Shown here piece after piece: positions 1,561 through 55,248 of a DNA stretch of 64,000 nt. The stretch lies in the NCBI RefSeq assembly GCF_058153355.1, contig NZ_CM177019.1. One strand, 5' to 3'. The stretch's first letter is position 1, and every line of letters starts with the position of its first letter. The translations under genes were made by a program, and so were the position numbers. The notes beneath the pieces were generated by a model, which ran no database searches, was not told the origin of the DNA, and was given only the letters and a program-made list of their open reading frames with translations.

Positions 1561-4500
1561 TGCTGCTACCGATGTTGCCAATGGCATTGCTCACCGAAGC
1601 GTTAATCACATAGGCATTGCCGTCCGCCAGCGCGGTGACATCGGCGCTGCCGAGGGTGTAGCTCCAGCTACCACCGGTCTGCACCGTAGTGGTGTAGGTT
1701 TTACCGTTTAAGGTCAGAGTCAGCGTCTGCCCGACTGGGGCGGTGGTGGTGCCGCTGATCACCAAAGACGCGCCGTGTTCCGCCGCGTTCACCACATCAT
1801 CGCCCGCAAAGGTATTGATGGTGACCGTTGGCACGCCGCCATTCAACGTCACGCCACGGCTGGCGCTACCGGGGTTTCCGGCCTGATCGCTGACCGTCGC
1901 GCTGATGGTGTAGCTGCCGTCGCTTAATCCGGCAAACTGCTGCGCCGGAATAAATACCGACCAGCTTCCGCCACTGCCGACCGTTGCGGTCCAGTTTTGT
2001 CCGTTAAAGGTGACGCTCACCGTCTGGCCCGCTTCGGCGGTGGTGGTGCCGCTGATGGTCTGCCCGGCAAGCTGTTCGGCGTTGTTGATAATATCGTCAC
2101 CCGCCACGGTGGCGATGGTCACCGTTGGCGCAACGGTATCGACGGTCAGGGCGTGCGTGGTTTGACCGGGGTTACCCGCACGGTCGTTCACACTGGCGGT
2201 GATGGTCTGCGCGCCTTGCCCGAGTGCTGCCAGATCCGCCACAGGCACGTTCAGCGCCCAGGTGCCATTGGCGGCAACCGTAGCGGTATAGGTTTTGCCG
2301 CCAAAGGTGACAGTGACCGTCTGCCCCACTTCCGCGCTGGTCGAGCCGTTAAGGGTTAACGGCTGCTGCTGTTCGGCGGCGTTGAGTCGATCGTCCGTCG
2401 AAACGGTGTTGATGCTGATAACCGGCGCGGTGAGATCTACCGCCACGCTGCGCGAGGCCGTGGCGCTATTTCCTGCGCTGTCCTGGGCGGAGGCGCTAAC
2501 CGTGTAGCTGGTGCCATCCGCAAGTGCCGCGACGTCTGCCGCCGACACATTCACGCTCCAGCTCCCGTTGTTCTGAATGGTGGCGCTGTAGCCTTTGCCA
2601 TTAAGTAACACGGTCACCACCGTACCTGCGGCAAAGTTCGTTCCGGTGCCGCTCAGGGTCAGCGCACTGCCTGCTTCGGCGGCGTTAATAATATTATCGC
2701 CACTGATGGTGCTGACCGAGAGCGACACCACCGCCGTGTTCACCTGCACGTTGTGCGTCTGCGTGCTGCTGTTGCCTGCGCTATCGGTGATGGTGGCGCT
2801 GATGGTCACCGTGCCGTCCGCAAGGCCGGAAATCACACTGGCTGGCACGCCAACGCTCCAGTTGCCGCTGGCATCGGTGCTGGTAACGTACTGCTGCCCG
2901 GCGATGGTCACCACCAGGCGGTCACCTGCCACCGCGCCCGTGGCGGTGCCGCTGATAATCTGCGCCTGGTTATGTTCGATGTTGTTAATCACATCATCGC
3001 CCGCCACGGTGTTAAAGCTGATGACGGGCGCGGTGGTATCGACGGTGACGCCTTTGCTGGCGCTGCCAGGGTTACCCGCCAGATCGCTGACCGTGGCAGT
3101 CAGGGTGTAGCCGTTATTGGCAAGTGCGGTTAAGTCACTGGCAGGCAGCGTTAAGCTCCAGCTGCCGTCTGCCTGCACCGTGGTCTGGTAGTTAGTGCCG
3201 TTTAGCGTGACGGTGAGCGTTTGCCCGGTTTCCGCCGTGCTGGTGCCGGAAACCGTCACGCCCGCCGCCGCTTCGCTGGCGTTGATGATGTTATCGCTGG
3301 CAATGGTGTTGATGGTCACCGTTGGCGCGGCGCTATCAACGCTGTATTCATGCGTTGTCGTGGCGCTGTTGCCGTTGACGTTAGTCACCCGCACCTGGGC
3401 ACTGGCATCGCCGTCACGCAGAGCCGCCAAATCCGCAGTCGGAACGGTGGTGCTCCAGCTACCGTTAGCCGCCACCGTGGTGGTGTAAGTTTTGCCGCCA
3501 AAGGTAAGGGTAACGGTTTGCCCCGCTTCGACGCCGGATGTGCTACCGGAGAGCGTTAGCGCCGCACCTTTTTCAGTGGCGTTAATCACATCATCGCTGG
3601 TGATGCTGTTCAGGCTGATGGCGACGGTAGTGAGATCAACGGTCAGCGGATGGGTAATGCTGGTTTGTGTTCCGGCACTGTTCGCCCCGCTAACGGTAAT
3701 ATTCAGCGTTCCCGCAGGCCAGTTGCTGACATCCGCCGCCGGAATGCCGACGCTCCAGGTGCCGTTCGCCAACACCGCGGCGGCATAAGTTTGGTTATTT
3801 ATCACCACCGTCAACGCCGTCCCTGGCGCAAAGCCGGAGCTGCTCCCGGTGATCACCTGTGCCTGAGCGTGTTCGATGATATTGACCACATCATCGCCTG
3901 CGACGGTATCTACCCGCAGGCCAGGCAGACTGGCATCTATAGTGATATCGCGCGTGCTGCTGCCGGTATTGCCAACGGCGTTGGTCACCGAGGCGTTAAC
4001 CGTTAATTCACCGTTACCTAACGCCTGCCAGTCAGCGGCTGGTACGCTTACATTCCAGCTTAAATCAGCCTGCACGGTGGCGGTGTAAGTTTTACCGCCC
4101 AGCGTAACGGTGACGGTGCTGCCCGCCGCCGCCCCGGTTACCTGGCCGCTGATGGTTTGTGCGCTACCCGCTTCGGCGGCATTGATAATGTCGTCCGTCG
4201 CCACCGGATTAATGGTGACGCCTGGCAGCGCGGTATTGACCTGCACATTATGGCTGGCAGTACTGCTGTTGCCCTGGGCGTTGGTGACGCTCGCCATCAC
4301 GCTGTAGGTGGCTTCGCCCAGCGCACTGACCGCCGAGGCGGGCACGGTGACGCTCCAGTTGCCGGAGGCATCGGTGGTGGCGCTGTAGTTTTGTCCATTC
4401 AGCGTGACGGTGATCGCCGTGCCCGCAGGCTGATCGCTGGTGCCGGAAAGCGCCAGATTCGATCCTTTTTCCGTCGCGTTGATCACGTCATCGCCCGCGA

Positions 4501-22659: not shown

Positions 22660-22805
22660 CATGCCTGCCGGATGCGGCATAAACGCCTTATCCGGCCTAC
22701 GATTCAGGCACAGGGTTGTAGGCCTGATAAGACGCGTAAGCGTCGCATCAGGCAATGGTGCTCGGATGCCGGATGCGGCGTGAACGCCTTATCCGGCATC
22801 CGAGA
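22660..22805. repeat. REP/BIME cluster (three REP units) in the copA-ybaP intergenic region
   Basis: Canonical REP palindromes (gcctgccggatgcggcataaacgccttatccggcctac and variants) in alternating orientation; the ORF-track 85-aa ORF at 22612-22869 is the typical REP translation artefact (RMRHKRLIRP). Confidence 0.8.
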
Positions 22806-22937: not shown

Positions 22938-23732
22938 ATGGATCTGTTGTACCGGGTAAAAACGCTTTGGGCCGCGCTGCGCGGCAATCATTACACCTGG
23001 CCTGCTATCGATATCTCTCTTCCCGACCATCGCCATTTTCATCTGATCGGCAGTATTCATATGGGTAGCCACGATATGGCTCCCCTGCCCACCCGTTTGC
23101 TCAAAAAGCTCAAAAACGCCGATGCGCTGATCGTCGAGGCGGATGTTTCCACCAGCGATACGCCTTTTGCTAATTTGCCTGCCTGCGAGGCGCTGGAAGA
23201 GCGCATTAGCGAGGAGCAATTACAAAATCTGCAACACATAAGCCAGGAGATGGGTATTTCTCCATCGCTCTTTTCTACCCAACCACTATGGCAAATCGCG
23301 ATGGTTCTTCAGGCAACGCAAGCGCAAAAACTGGGGCTGCGGGCAGAATATGGTATCGATTACCAGCTATTGCAGGCGGCGAAGCAACAACATAAACCCG
23401 TGATTGAACTGGAAGGGGCAGAAAACCAGATTGCCATGTTGCTCCAGCTCCCTGACAAAGGACTGGCGCTGCTGGACGATACGCTGACCCACTGGCACAC
23501 CAATGCACGGTTGCTGCAACAAATGATGAGCTGGTGGCTGAATACGCCGCCGCAAAATAATGAAATAACGCTGCCCAATACGTTCAGTCAGTCGCTGTAC
23601 GATGTGCTGATGCATCAGCGAAATCTCGCCTGGCGGGATAAACTGCATGCTATGCCGCCGGGGCGCTATGTGGTCGCGGTCGGAGCTTTACATCTGTATG
23701 GAGAAGGGAATTTGCCGCAGATGTTGCGCTAA
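22938..23732 (+). CDS. ybaP: TraB-family protein YbaP
   Basis: 264-aa ORF matching YbaP by sequence recall and position. Confidence 0.9.
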   Translation: MDLLYRVKTLWAALRGNHYTWPAIDISLPDHRHFHLIGSIHMGSHDMAPLPTRLLKKLKNADALIVEADVSTSDTPFANLPACEALEERISEEQLQNLQHISQEMGISPSLFSTQPLWQIAMVLQATQAQKLGLRAEYGIDYQLLQAAKQQHKPVIELEGAENQIAMLLQLPDKGLALLDDTLTHWHTNARLLQQMMSWWLNTPPQNNEITLPNTFSQSLYDVLMHQRNLAWRDKLHAMPPGRYVVAVGALHLYGEGNLPQMLR

Positions 23733-23814
23733 AAAAATGGCCAATATCGCTATTGGCCCGTCAAAGAGGAATTTCATTTTTTTATTATTATGCCGTCACT
23801 TTAAGCGACGGTGT
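23733..23814 (-). ncRNA. chiX: ChiX (MicM/SroB) Hfq-dependent small RNA
   Basis: Minus-strand sequence ACACCGTCGCTTAAAGTGACGGCATAATAATAAAAAAATGAAATTCCTCTTTGACGGGCCAATAGCGATATTGGCCATTTTTTT matches my recollection of ChiX, including the terminator hairpin (GGCCAATAGCGATATTGGCC) and U-tract. Lies in the ybaP-ybaK intergenic region, antisense to both, as in K-12. Ends are approximate. Confidence 0.8.
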
Positions 23815-33039: not shown

Positions 33040-33190
33040 TACCGCCTCTTATCGATTCAACTTGTTGATAATTGTAGCGGAAAAGTGAAGAAGAAGAACT
33101 AATTGCTGTGAGAGGCTAAATCAGAAAATATCATAAGGCGCTGTATCTTTAATGAGAGATTTTTGCCAGCGCCAGATTTTCCAGAAGGTG

Positions 33191-33694
33191 CTATTGCGTC
33201 ACGGGGGTACCATTGACGTTAAGTGTATATGGCCAGATTAAATTTGATGCCCTACCACACATTGGTGTAGGCGTTCTGAAAGTGGTCCTGATCGTATACT
33301 CTCCGGCTTTCTGGGGAGTGCCTGAAAATTTTACCCACGCCTCTTCGGTCAGAGAATCTGTATTCTTTTTCAGAAACTCTGCATTTTCTTCCGTGATGGG
33401 GAAAAGTTCACCCTCTTTGTTTTTTGCCCACAATGACATTTGTATGCCTTCAGGCAAAGTTTCAGGCTTTTCGGGACGAATGTCCGGGGCTTCATACCAA
33501 CTTATGGTCGTTTTTACGACGGTTTCGTAATACTGGCCCACCTGAGCATCAGGAAGCTCTTGTTTTTCATTAACTTTATCATTACTTGTAACATGAGAAA
33601 GAGCTACACCGACGTAACACATAGGCATTTCACACCCTGTCAGCAATGACGCAAGCAATAAAATACCTGTTGGTAATAAACAGCGATAACGCAT
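33191..33694 (-). CDS. Small predicted lipoprotein with one putative Ig-like (He_PIG-like) domain; not part of K-12 adk-hemH spacing as recalled
   Basis: Preferred start is the internal Met at 33694 (MRYRCLLPTGILLLASLLTGC, lipobox LTGC, AAGGA about 8 nt upstream); the longer ORF-track start at 33763 lies inside a REP element. Mature part contains LPEGI...SGTPQKAGEYTIRTTF. Visibly AT-richer than flanking genes (not computed). Confidence 0.6.
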   Translation of the reverse strand: MRYRCLLPTGILLLASLLTGCEMPMCYVGVALSHVTSNDKVNEKQELPDAQVGQYYETVVKTTISWYEAPDIRPEKPETLPEGIQMSLWAKNKEGELFPITEENAEFLKKNTDSLTEEAWVKFSGTPQKAGEYTIRTTFRTPTPMCGRASNLIWPYTLNVNGTPVTQ

Positions 33695-33760
33695 ATTTAC
33701 GTCCTTGTTAAAGGCCGGAAGCGTATCCAGCCTCCAGTTGCTGGCAAAGTGCGCTTTGTT

Positions 33761-33820
33761 CATGCCGGATGCGGCGCGAACGCCTTATCCGGCCTACAAA
33801 CTGACAAGTTTGTAGGCCTG
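33761..33820. repeat. REP element pair between the lipoprotein gene and adk
   Basis: catgccggatgcggcgcgaacgccttatccggcctacaaactgacaagtttgtaggcctg. Confidence 0.7.
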
Positions 33821-33875
33821 TTCCCCTCACCCTCTCCCCGAAGGAGCGAAGGGACTGTCCGTGCGCGCTTTCGAA

Positions 33876-37671: not shown

Positions 37672-39603
37672 TCAAATGGGGCGGATACTTTCTTCATCCA
37701 GCTCCGCATCGAAGAATCGACGCAGGGTCTGAATATTATTATCCGCAATAATGGACTCGCGCGCCTGCGCAAGTTTTTCTTCGTATATCGCCTGACGCCA
37801 TTCCAGCGGCGTGCGCACCGCGGGATTATCATCTTCAACGATAGTCAGTTCAACCGTTGAACCTTTTAACGTGCTCAACGCTTCAGCCAGTTTTTGCTGT
37901 GCACCGCGGTTGTTTAAATGCCGCTGAGAGGAGCGCAAATGCAGACATACTGCGTTGTCGCTCTCCTCTTTCCAGGCATTTAACGCCACCTGTTCAACCA
38001 GTTTTGGTAGCGAAAGTTGGCTCACCTGTGCCGCCCAAGGATCGCGCTCAATGGCTTCTGCCGCCAGCTTTGCCGCCAGTTCCGGCGTTTTTTCATGTTC
38101 CAGCGCTTTTTTTAGCGCCTTCGGCGTGGCGACCACTTCTTTTTGCTGCATCACTGGAGTGGTAGCCTTCCAGCGATACGCTTCTTTTTTGGCTGGTGCT
38201 TTTTCCAGCGCCGATGGCACCGGACGCGCCTGAACGCGATCGGTGACCGAAGCCAGTCTTTCCAGCGCAGCGTTATTCACCGGCCGCGCGCGGGTAGCGG
38301 CTGCCGGTTCACTCTTTTTTGCTTTGGTTGCTCCCTGCACGCGCTGCAACTGCTGGCGCGCCGCCAGCACCTGGCTGGTGGTTTCCGGGAGCGGTACAGT
38401 CGGTGCCTGCTGCGGCGCTGATTGCGGTTGCGGCGGCACCTGGGTTGGCGTCATTACAGCCGTTGGCGCGACGGGCGCAAAGGACTGGCGTGGCACTTCT
38501 GGCTCAGGCAGCGGCATACGCGGATGGAACGCCAGCGCGCGAAGCAGCGTCATCTCAACACCCATACGGCGGTCTGGCGCATACGGTAATTCTTTGCGAC
38601 CAATCAACAGCGTCTGGTAGTAAAGCTGAATATCCGTCGGCGGTATGGTGCGCGCCAGTTCACGCATCCGCAGCTCGATAGCGGCCATGTCGTTGCCCAG
38701 CGCAGCAGGGGAAAGTTGCACCATTGCAATGCGGTGCAACAGGCCGAGCATTTCTACCAGCAACGCTTCCCACTCAATACCACGAGCGGCGGCTTCATTA
38801 ATCAGCGACATTACACGCTCGCCGTTGGCTTCAACCATCGCTTCAACCAGCGACAGCGCCTGATCGTCGTCAAGCGTACCCAGCATCGCACTGACCGCCT
38901 GGGTTGAAACCTGGCCGTCACCGCTGGCAATTGCCTGGTCGGTTAAACTTAGGGCATCTCGCAAGCTGCCTTCAGCGGCGCGCGCCAGCAGTTGCAGCGC
39001 CCGCGGCTCGTGAGCGATATGTTCTTCGTTGAGGATGTGCTCAAGCTGATGGCGAATTTGCTCGACATCCAGCGCCTTGAGATGAAATTGCAGGCAGCGT
39101 GACAAAATCGTCACCGGCAATTTCTGCGGATCGGTCGTCGCCAGCAGAAACTTGACGTGCTCCGGCGGTTCTTCAAGGGTTTTTAACAGTGCGTTAAAGC
39201 TGTGGCGCGACAGCATATGCACTTCGTCGATCAGATAAACTTTAAAACGACCACGCGCTGGCGCGTACTGGACGTTATCCAGCAGGTCGCGGGTATCTTC
39301 GACTTTGGTGCGCGAGGCGGCGTCGATTTCAATCAGATCGACAAAGCGCCCCTGCTCAATTTCACGACAGTTATCGCACACGCCGCACGGCGTCGCGGTA
39401 ATGCCGGTTTCGCAGTTTAGCCCCTTCGCCAGCAGTCGGGCGATAGAGGTTTTTCCGACGCCACGGGTGCCGGAAAAAAGATAAGCATGATGAATACGCC
39501 CTAACGACAAGCCGTTCGCCAGTGCGGTCAGCACATGTTCCTGGCCGACGACGTCAGCAAAGGTTTGTGGGCGCCATTTTCGGGCTAAGACCTGATAACT
39601 CAT
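37672..39603 (-). CDS. dnaX: DNA polymerase III subunits tau (full length) and gamma (frameshift product)
   Basis: 643-aa ORF with AAA+ motifs (GTRGVGKTS) and a C-terminal tau-specific region. Confidence 0.97.
   Translation of the reverse strand: MSYQVLARKWRPQTFADVVGQEHVLTALANGLSLGRIHHAYLFSGTRGVGKTSIARLLAKGLNCETGITATPCGVCDNCREIEQGRFVDLIEIDAASRTKVEDTRDLLDNVQYAPARGRFKVYLIDEVHMLSRHSFNALLKTLEEPPEHVKFLLATTDPQKLPVTILSRCLQFHLKALDVEQIRHQLEHILNEEHIAHEPRALQLLARAAEGSLRDALSLTDQAIASGDGQVSTQAVSAMLGTLDDDQALSLVEAMVEANGERVMSLINEAAARGIEWEALLVEMLGLLHRIAMVQLSPAALGNDMAAIELRMRELARTIPPTDIQLYYQTLLIGRKELPYAPDRRMGVEMTLLRALAFHPRMPLPEPEVPRQSFAPVAPTAVMTPTQVPPQPQSAPQQAPTVPLPETTSQVLAARQQLQRVQGATKAKKSEPAAATRARPVNNAALERLASVTDRVQARPVPSALEKAPAKKEAYRWKATTPVMQQKEVVATPKALKKALEHEKTPELAAKLAAEAIERDPWAAQVSQLSLPKLVEQVALNAWKEESDNAVCLHLRSSQRHLNNRGAQQKLAEALSTLKGSTVELTIVEDDNPAVRTPLEWRQAIYEEKLAQARESIIADNNIQTLRRFFDAELDEESIRPI
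38309..38320 (-). other. dnaX: dnaX programmed -1 frameshift site (A_AAA_AAG) with immediate -1-frame UGA, producing gamma
   Basis: Plus-strand ctttttt at 38314-38320 is the complement of AAAAAAG at codons AKK of ...GATKAKKSEPAA (0-frame verified by hand). The -1 frame reads AAA AAA GAG UGA, with the stop at plus 38309-38311. A GC-rich potential stem follows on the mRNA (plus 38281-38307). Confidence 0.85.
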
Positions 39604-55134: not shown

Positions 55135-55248
55135 GGGTGGGGGCCCTGCCAGCTACATCCCGGCACACGCGTCATCTGCCTTGGCTGCTTCCTTCCGGAC
55201 CTGACCTGGTAAACAGAGTAGCGTTGCGGGAGAACCAACAGAGCCCCC
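55135..55248 (-). ncRNA. ffs: 4.5S RNA (signal recognition particle RNA)
   Basis: Minus strand reads GGGGGCTCTGTTGGTTCTCCCGCAACGCTACTCTGTTTACCAGGTCAGGTCCGGAAGGAAGCAGCCAAGGCAGATGACGCGTGTGCCGGGATGTAGCTGGCAGGGCCCCCACCC, 114 nt, matching the E. coli 4.5S RNA as recalled. Confidence 0.95.

Follow-up and report, generated by a model that had tools for sequence, protein, structure and literature searches.

Introduction

In dnaX, 50% of the ribosomes shift frame and then terminate one codon later (Atkins et al., review, PMC5009743). The A_AAA_AAG heptamer at which they shift is notably shift-prone because the single tRNA-Lys of Escherichia coli (mnm5s2U34) pairs better with AAA than with AAG, and the native site is accompanied by an internal Shine-Dalgarno (SD) element, with which 16S rRNA pairs 10 nucleotides (nt) to the 5' side of the shift, and by a stem of 11 base pairs (bp) (PMC5009743). 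Kim et al. indicated that the hairpin blocks the translocation of the two Lys codons driven by elongation factor G (EF-G), while the SD element promotes futile EF-G cycles; the efficiency in vitro was 84%, and it was lowered to 50% by removing the SD element, to 20% by removing the hairpin, and to 2% by making the site non-slippery (PMC5389563). In the present study, a stretch of 64,000 nt from NCBI RefSeq assembly GCF_058153355.1, contig NZ_CM177019.1 (the whole of it is called the window below), was analyzed, and it almost certainly carries a canonical dnaX programmed -1 ribosomal frameshift cassette of the E. coli type, by which two clamp-loader subunits would be produced from one mRNA. An earlier note made from the letters of the window had placed an intact cassette at 38309-38320, and had proposed the folding of the downstream RNA and a comparison with E. 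coli K-12 as checks. The sequence, phase, spacing, predicted structure, product sizes, family membership, and evolutionary constraint of the cassette were established directly from the window and its relatives, and nothing that we found contradicts this explanation.

The closest described system is the dnaX cassette of K-12 (Rfam RF00382), which shares with the window the heptamer and its phase, an AGGGAG element at 10 nt, the 11-bp stem-loop, the GAG-UGA codons, and products of 431 and 643 amino acids (aa). There is no difference inside the cassette, and the two differ only in the host gene (56 of 1932 nt). The dnaX genes of Thermus thermophilus (transcriptional slippage) and Caulobacter crescentus (proteolysis) reach the same outcome, in that one gene gives a shorter gamma without the C-terminal domains of tau, but the mechanism is different; the site in the window has no A9 run and has RNA-level stimulators of ribosomal frameshifting. 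The -1 sites of the IS3 family and of IS911 likewise combine a heptamer of the A_AAA_AAG type with an SD-like stimulator upstream and an RNA structure on the 3' side (PMC5009743). However, the shift in these mobile elements leads to a longer fusion protein (transposase), whereas the shift in the window leads to termination one codon later and takes place in a core replication gene.

The dnaX Locus and Its Frameshift Cassette

The following features make up the locus:

37672–39603, minus strand: zero-frame open reading frame (ORF) of dnaX, encoding tau, 643 aa, 71.1 kDa (ORF list)
38309–39603, minus strand: gamma coding region; codons 1–430 in frame 0, the -1 slip (G at 38314 read twice), GAG, and UGA (computed translation)
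38331–38336, minus strand: internal SD-like element AGGGAG (sequence, and pattern match at 38309–38336)
38314–38320, minus strand: slippery heptamer A_AAA_AAG, made up of the last base of Ala428 (GCA), Lys429 (AAA), and Lys430 (AAG)
38309–38311, minus strand: -1-frame UGA ending gamma, preceded by -1-frame GAG at 38312–38314 (-1 translation "E*")
38279–38308, minus strand: 3' stimulatory stem-loop, 11 bp with a 5-nt UACCC loop, beginning 5 nt past the heptamer
38275–38339, minus strand: Rfam RF00382, "DnaX ribosomal frameshifting element" (cmscan, 65 of 65 model positions)

The host gene is dnaX, coding for the clamp-loader ATPase, because three lines of evidence agree. Residues 1–643 of the ORF scored 982 bits with NF005942 ("DNA polymerase III subunit gamma/tau"), an NCBIfam equivalog whose cut-off is 613; Pfam found the five domains of tau in it, namely the ATPase domains I–III, domain IV (417–498), and domain V (500–640); and the gene order is collinear with mscK–ybaM–priC–ybaN–apt–dnaX–ybaB–recR–htpG of K-12, with 97.45% identity across 8 kb. 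PDB chains of both tau and gamma length also matched. The chain 8gj0_B is a 643-aa tau that matches the ORF, and 8giy_B is a chain of 431 aa, the length of gamma, which was deposited as subunit tau and aligns to tau over residues 1–430 only.

A -1 slip at the heptamer was computed to give a gamma of 431 aa and 47.6 kDa with the C-terminus …KAKKE. Similarly, the annotation of K-12 has a coding sequence (CDS) for tau and a joined two-piece CDS for gamma, which is 1295 nt long, corresponds to 431 aa, and ends at the equivalent position. Domain IV of tau binds DnaB and domain V binds the alpha subunit. According to the Pfam coordinates, the stop one codon past the shift leaves gamma with the clamp-loader ATPase domains I–III and the linker, and removes domains IV and V.

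The plus strand at 38309–38320 reads tcactctttttt, and the minus strand from 38320 to 38309 reads AAAAAAGAGTGA, inside dnaX. The coordinates of the earlier note were therefore exact, and the strand, which it had left unstated, is the minus strand. With its first base at gene offset 1283, in phase 2, the heptamer is read as X_XXY_YYZ, GC[A AAA AAG], over codons 428–430, which is the phase required for tandem -1 slippage; the slippery site named in the earlier note is accordingly real and lies in the shift phase of the gene. Past the heptamer, the nearest stop comes after 1 codon in the -1 frame and after 11 codons in the +1 frame. The UGA of the -1 frame had been described as immediate; it is present, but as the second -1 codon, after GAG.

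Upstream of the heptamer lies AGGGAG, a stimulator absent from the earlier note, which would pair with the 3' end of 16S rRNA (3'-UUCCUC-5'). The spacer between it and the heptamer, CAACCAAAGC, is 10 nt long, as expected from the published spacing (PMC5009743). Downstream, the folding of the RNA bore out the GC-rich stem of the earlier note as a stem-loop consisting of two helices (6 + 5 bp), with a single unpaired A on the 5' side between them and two unpaired bases in the 3' arm. This stem-loop is both the minimum free energy and the centroid structure (-19.7 kcal/mol), and its predicted fold is identical to the consensus structure of RF00382, with zero non-canonical pairs. At 96.8 bits (E 5.8e-20), the RF00382 match exceeded the gathering score of 35.

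The combination of these parts is decisively beyond chance, though single parts are weak. The composite AGGGAG-N10-AAAAAAGAGTGA occurs once in the window and in 0 of 100 shuffles, even with 2 mismatches allowed. The bare AAAAAAG occurs 15 times in the window, and the copy at 38314–38320 is the only one that falls in the shift phase within a long ORF (open over 653 codons); the same copy is also preceded by an SD-like element and followed within two codons by a -1 stop, and the fold downstream of it is the most stable of the 15. Two other AAAAAAG copies in dnaX, at 38184–38190 and 38106–38112 (minus strand), were excluded from the cassette, as they are in phase AAA_AAA_G and lack both an SD-like element and a -1 stop close by. 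They sit in the tau-specific part of the gene, where they encode Lys-Lys, and are not expected to be programmed shift sites.

Comparison With K-12 and Other E. coli Genomes

The comparison with K-12 agreed with the statement of the earlier note that the cassette has precisely the form of the classical system. A stretch of 70 nt spanning the site is the same in K-12 MG1655, and the 65-nt cassette shows no difference. Among 5423 matching complete E. coli genomes, 5372 carry these 65 nt with an identity of at least 99%, and RefSeq labels them there as "DnaX frameshifting element". Over the whole of dnaX, the identity to K-12 is 97.1%, with 56 of 1932 nt differing, 54 of them synonymous and 2 non-synonymous (A266S, M578T).

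The best match to dnaX among the complete RefSeq genomes of E. coli is 98.8% identical. For the 24 kb at window positions 27000-51000, these genomes are at most ~98.5–98.7% identical, and K-12 is 97.1–97.5% identical. The source of the window seems to be an Escherichia lineage scarce among complete genomes, because no complete RefSeq genome of E. coli is closer than ~98.5–98.8%. One genome labelled E. coli, strain SCPM-O-B-8794 (L025), is ~94.9% identical to the window over dnaX–htpG and ~90% beyond, which is the level of Escherichia albertii (L008). It may be mislabelled or represent a non-coli Escherichia species, since its identity to the window matches the level of E. albertii.

The differences from the nearest strain, N96, concentrate in gene nt 924–1266, and this clustering suggests a recombination mosaic in dnaX. 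Strain N96 varies to within 17 nt upstream of the heptamer. It is very unlikely that this divergent lineage sets its tau:gamma ratio differently through sequence beyond the 65-nt cassette; such tuning could act, for instance, by way of the local codon usage, the spacing of ribosomes, or RNA structure of longer range in the 260 nt identical to K-12 (nt 1147–1406). No positive evidence for such altered tuning was found in the comparison, and nt 1–245 form an equally long stretch free of differences.

Conservation of the Cassette in Enterobacterales

A scan for AGGGAG-N10-AAAAAAGAGTGA with one genome per species returned at least 120 loci, and ~75 enterobacterial dnaX genes were among the matches listed. 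No part of the stem was in the search pattern, and the filter prescribed nothing of it beyond the beginning of the 5' arm (CCG[GA]C). The 3' arm and the inner helix therefore served as an unbiased test of the structure. Among 50 distinct enterobacterial cassettes fitting the parse of the lower stem, the closing pair was A-U in 30, G-C in 18, A·C in 2, and G·U in none. The lower helix CCGGC/GCCGG was found in 48 of the 50, and one Mixta sequence had the double compensatory change CCGAC/GTCGG. The upper helix was rebuilt in several architectures, such as GCCGC…GCG-CG, GCGCC…GCGC, and GCGCG…CGCGC, with compensatory variants, for example GCCAC/GTG.

The cassettes of Citrobacter, Enterobacter, Pantoea, Erwinia, Serratia, and other Enterobacterales share with the window the SD-like element, the spacing, the heptamer, GAG-UGA, and the lower helix CCGGC/GCCGG. 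Other genera differ from the window in the upper helix and the loop, for example GCGCC…GCGC with loops of 5 to 8 nt, whereas the upper helix of the window is of the Escherichia/Citrobacter type. The closing pair is G-C in Pantoea and Erwinia, in contrast to A-U in the window.

In a codon alignment of 60 full-length enterobacterial genes from 60 species, the minimum of synonymous variation fell on the cassette. Codons 439–441 (GCG CGG CCG), which form the 3' arm, had zero synonymous variation compared with a gene-wide mean of 0.44, and they include CGG, a rare Arg codon. Only these three codons were counted as independent evidence in the scan. The synonymous invariance of the 3' arm, together with the compensatory changes in the stem, points firmly to selection acting at the RNA level, beyond the protein, as judged from the aligned sequences.

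Two loci in the scan departed from the common pattern. In Candidatus Pantoea persica (3006-3033, minus strand), the SD-like element, the heptamer, and GAG-UGA are kept, and the canonical 3' arm and upper helix are absent, apparently through a deletion. ViennaRNA predicted a different hairpin further downstream, and the cassette of this species may be weakened or remodelled. In Citrobacter koseri NCTC10786, the open stretch holding the cassette stops short of the normal N-terminus MSYQVLARK, which points to an upstream frameshift, a stop, or an assembly error in the record.

The exact 28-nt AGGGAG-N10-AAAAAAGAGTGA was also carried by ~40 Collinsella loci among the matches listed (for example L035 9769-9796, minus strand, and L003, L004, and L013). 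There it is located at the extreme 5' end of the principal sigma factor gene, where AGGGAG is a real SD before a GTG start. The sequence CC[A_AAA_AAG] is in the shift phase at codons 2–4 and is followed by a -1 UGA, a layout that resembles the synthetic dnaX constructs of single-molecule studies. At the sigma factor site, the downstream hairpin was not beyond chance (z = +0.77). Collinsella was thus rejected as a second frameshift system: the match is the SD and start region of a sigma factor gene without a significant hairpin, and is most likely a coincidence multiplied by the many species clusters of Collinsella.

Proposed Mechanism and Alternative Explanations

The slip itself, an efficiency of ~50%, and the roles of the stimulators are strongly indicated for the window by published work on K-12, because the sequence used in those experiments is the same as that of the cassette. 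By analogy, a ribosome on the dnaX mRNA would arrive at A_AAA_AAG with tRNA-Lys on AAA and AAG. Its translocation would be hindered by the 11-bp stem-loop at the mRNA entrance and by the base pairs that the anti-SD of 16S rRNA forms with AGGGAG, located 10 nt upstream, and both tRNA-Lys could then move back by one base and pair with AAA_AAA. Roughly half of all ribosomes would slip, read GAG and then UGA, and release the 431-aa gamma, while the remaining ribosomes would hold the frame and produce the 643-aa tau. A single tRNA-Lys (mnm5s2UUU) and a canonical anti-SD are expected in the host, as for an Escherichia genome.

Several observations limit the case for programmed frameshifting at this site. 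The bare AAAAAAG is not enriched in the window (15 copies vs. 9.5±3.2 expected), and the number of copies was dropped as evidence. The energy of the stem-loop is unexceptional against dinucleotide shuffles (44 nt, z = -1.67, 11 of 200 shuffles as stable), and the fold of the 106-nt context (z = -0.11) is unremarkable for GC-rich sequence; fold energy was therefore dropped as a test of significance, and the covariance-model score and the covariation were used instead. Zero differences from K-12 in 65 nt are not significant alone, since ~1.9 would be expected at a divergence of 2.9%, and other long stretches identical to K-12 are present in dnaX, at gene nt 1–245 and nt 1147–1406. The identity to K-12 around the cassette was rejected as a weak sign of constraint, in view of the similar stretch at nt 1–245 and the mosaic-like clustering of the substitutions. 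The low synonymous variation at codons 423–433 is partly an artefact, as the loci were picked by a pattern and a filter that cover these codons, and it was not counted. In addition, no tRNA genes were found in the window, the tRNA-Lys complement lying outside it, and the Rfam scan of the window gave no match to 16S rRNA.

The first of these observations are also what would be seen if the intact motif were a passive by-product of the protein constraint on Lys-Lys-Ser-Glu-Pro-Ala, with no frameshift function in this lineage: the bare heptamer has many copies in the window, and the energy of the fold is nothing unusual for sequence so rich in GC. However, a constraint on the protein would leave synonymous sites free to vary, yet AAA_AAG is fixed, as are the rare Arg codon CGG and the codons next to it, while the rest of dnaX has 54 synonymous differences from K-12. 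The paired positions covary, and the cassette is identical to the experimentally validated sequence of K-12, so that this explanation has practically no chance of being right. The same covariation and the synonymous invariance of the 3' arm, being signs of selection on the RNA, also argue against the idea that gamma arises by proteolysis of full-length tau with the motif incidental, as it does in Caulobacter crescentus, where gamma comes from the cleavage of tau (PMC5009743). The literature on E. coli ascribes gamma to frameshifting (PMC5009743, PMC5389563). Moreover, Glu431 of the -1 product is not encoded at that position in tau, and only the -1 frame supplies it; the length of 431 aa fits the two-piece gamma CDS of K-12 and the 431-aa PDB chain, whose alignment to tau covers 1–430 only. 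Proteolysis as the source of gamma can be regarded as vanishingly improbable here.

Gamma could also be produced by slippage of RNA polymerase on the run of A, giving mRNAs with an A inserted or deleted that reach an out-of-frame stop. The site does offer a homopolymeric A6 run with stops near in both alternative frames, and transcriptional slippage is documented for dnaX of Thermus thermophilus, but efficient slippage in bacteria has been described for ~9 A or T (PMC5009743), whereas the run at this site is just A6. Slippage during transcription would leave the conserved SD-like element at its fixed 10 nt and the covarying stem-loop unexplained, and purified translation systems supplied with defined mRNA shift frame at the identical K-12 cassette (PMC5389563), which makes transcriptional slippage extremely unlikely as the source of gamma. 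Programmed -1 ribosomal frameshifting of the E. coli type remains the explanation that we favor.

Taken together, the observation of the earlier note is confirmed and its interpretation is supported. The cassette is already known, real, intact, and entirely ordinary, and its use as a positive control for the frame assignments, which the earlier note had suggested, is appropriate. Its value lies only in that use: it confirms that this segment of the window is Escherichia chromosome, with the gene on the minus strand, and that the frames are right around 37.6–39.6 kb, and the intact cassette confirms that there is no indel error at a homopolymer-rich and error-prone site. By analogy with K-12, the strain would be able to make gamma, which serves the clamp loader only, as well as tau, which connects the polymerase core with the DnaB helicase; this is the state expected of E. 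coli.

Other Features of the Window

Three further RNA features were found by Rfam at the gathering threshold:

22721–22798, both strands: naRNA4/CssrE, an element of the repetitive extragenic palindromic (REP) type
23731–23814, minus strand: small RNA sroB
55144–55240, minus strand: ffs, the gene for the 4.5S RNA of the signal recognition particle (SRP)

An insert of 759 bp with ~44% GC is located between adk and hemH, at window positions 33116-33874. It holds an ORF of 190 aa (33191-33763, minus strand) with a lipoprotein-like signal (…LLLASLLTGC…), for which no Pfam match was found. At the position of the insert, E. albertii has ~55 bp. Of 5426 complete E. coli genomes, only 3 have the full-length insert (2017-02-2CC, 2013C-4282, and WL297), and their annotation calls it hypothetical.

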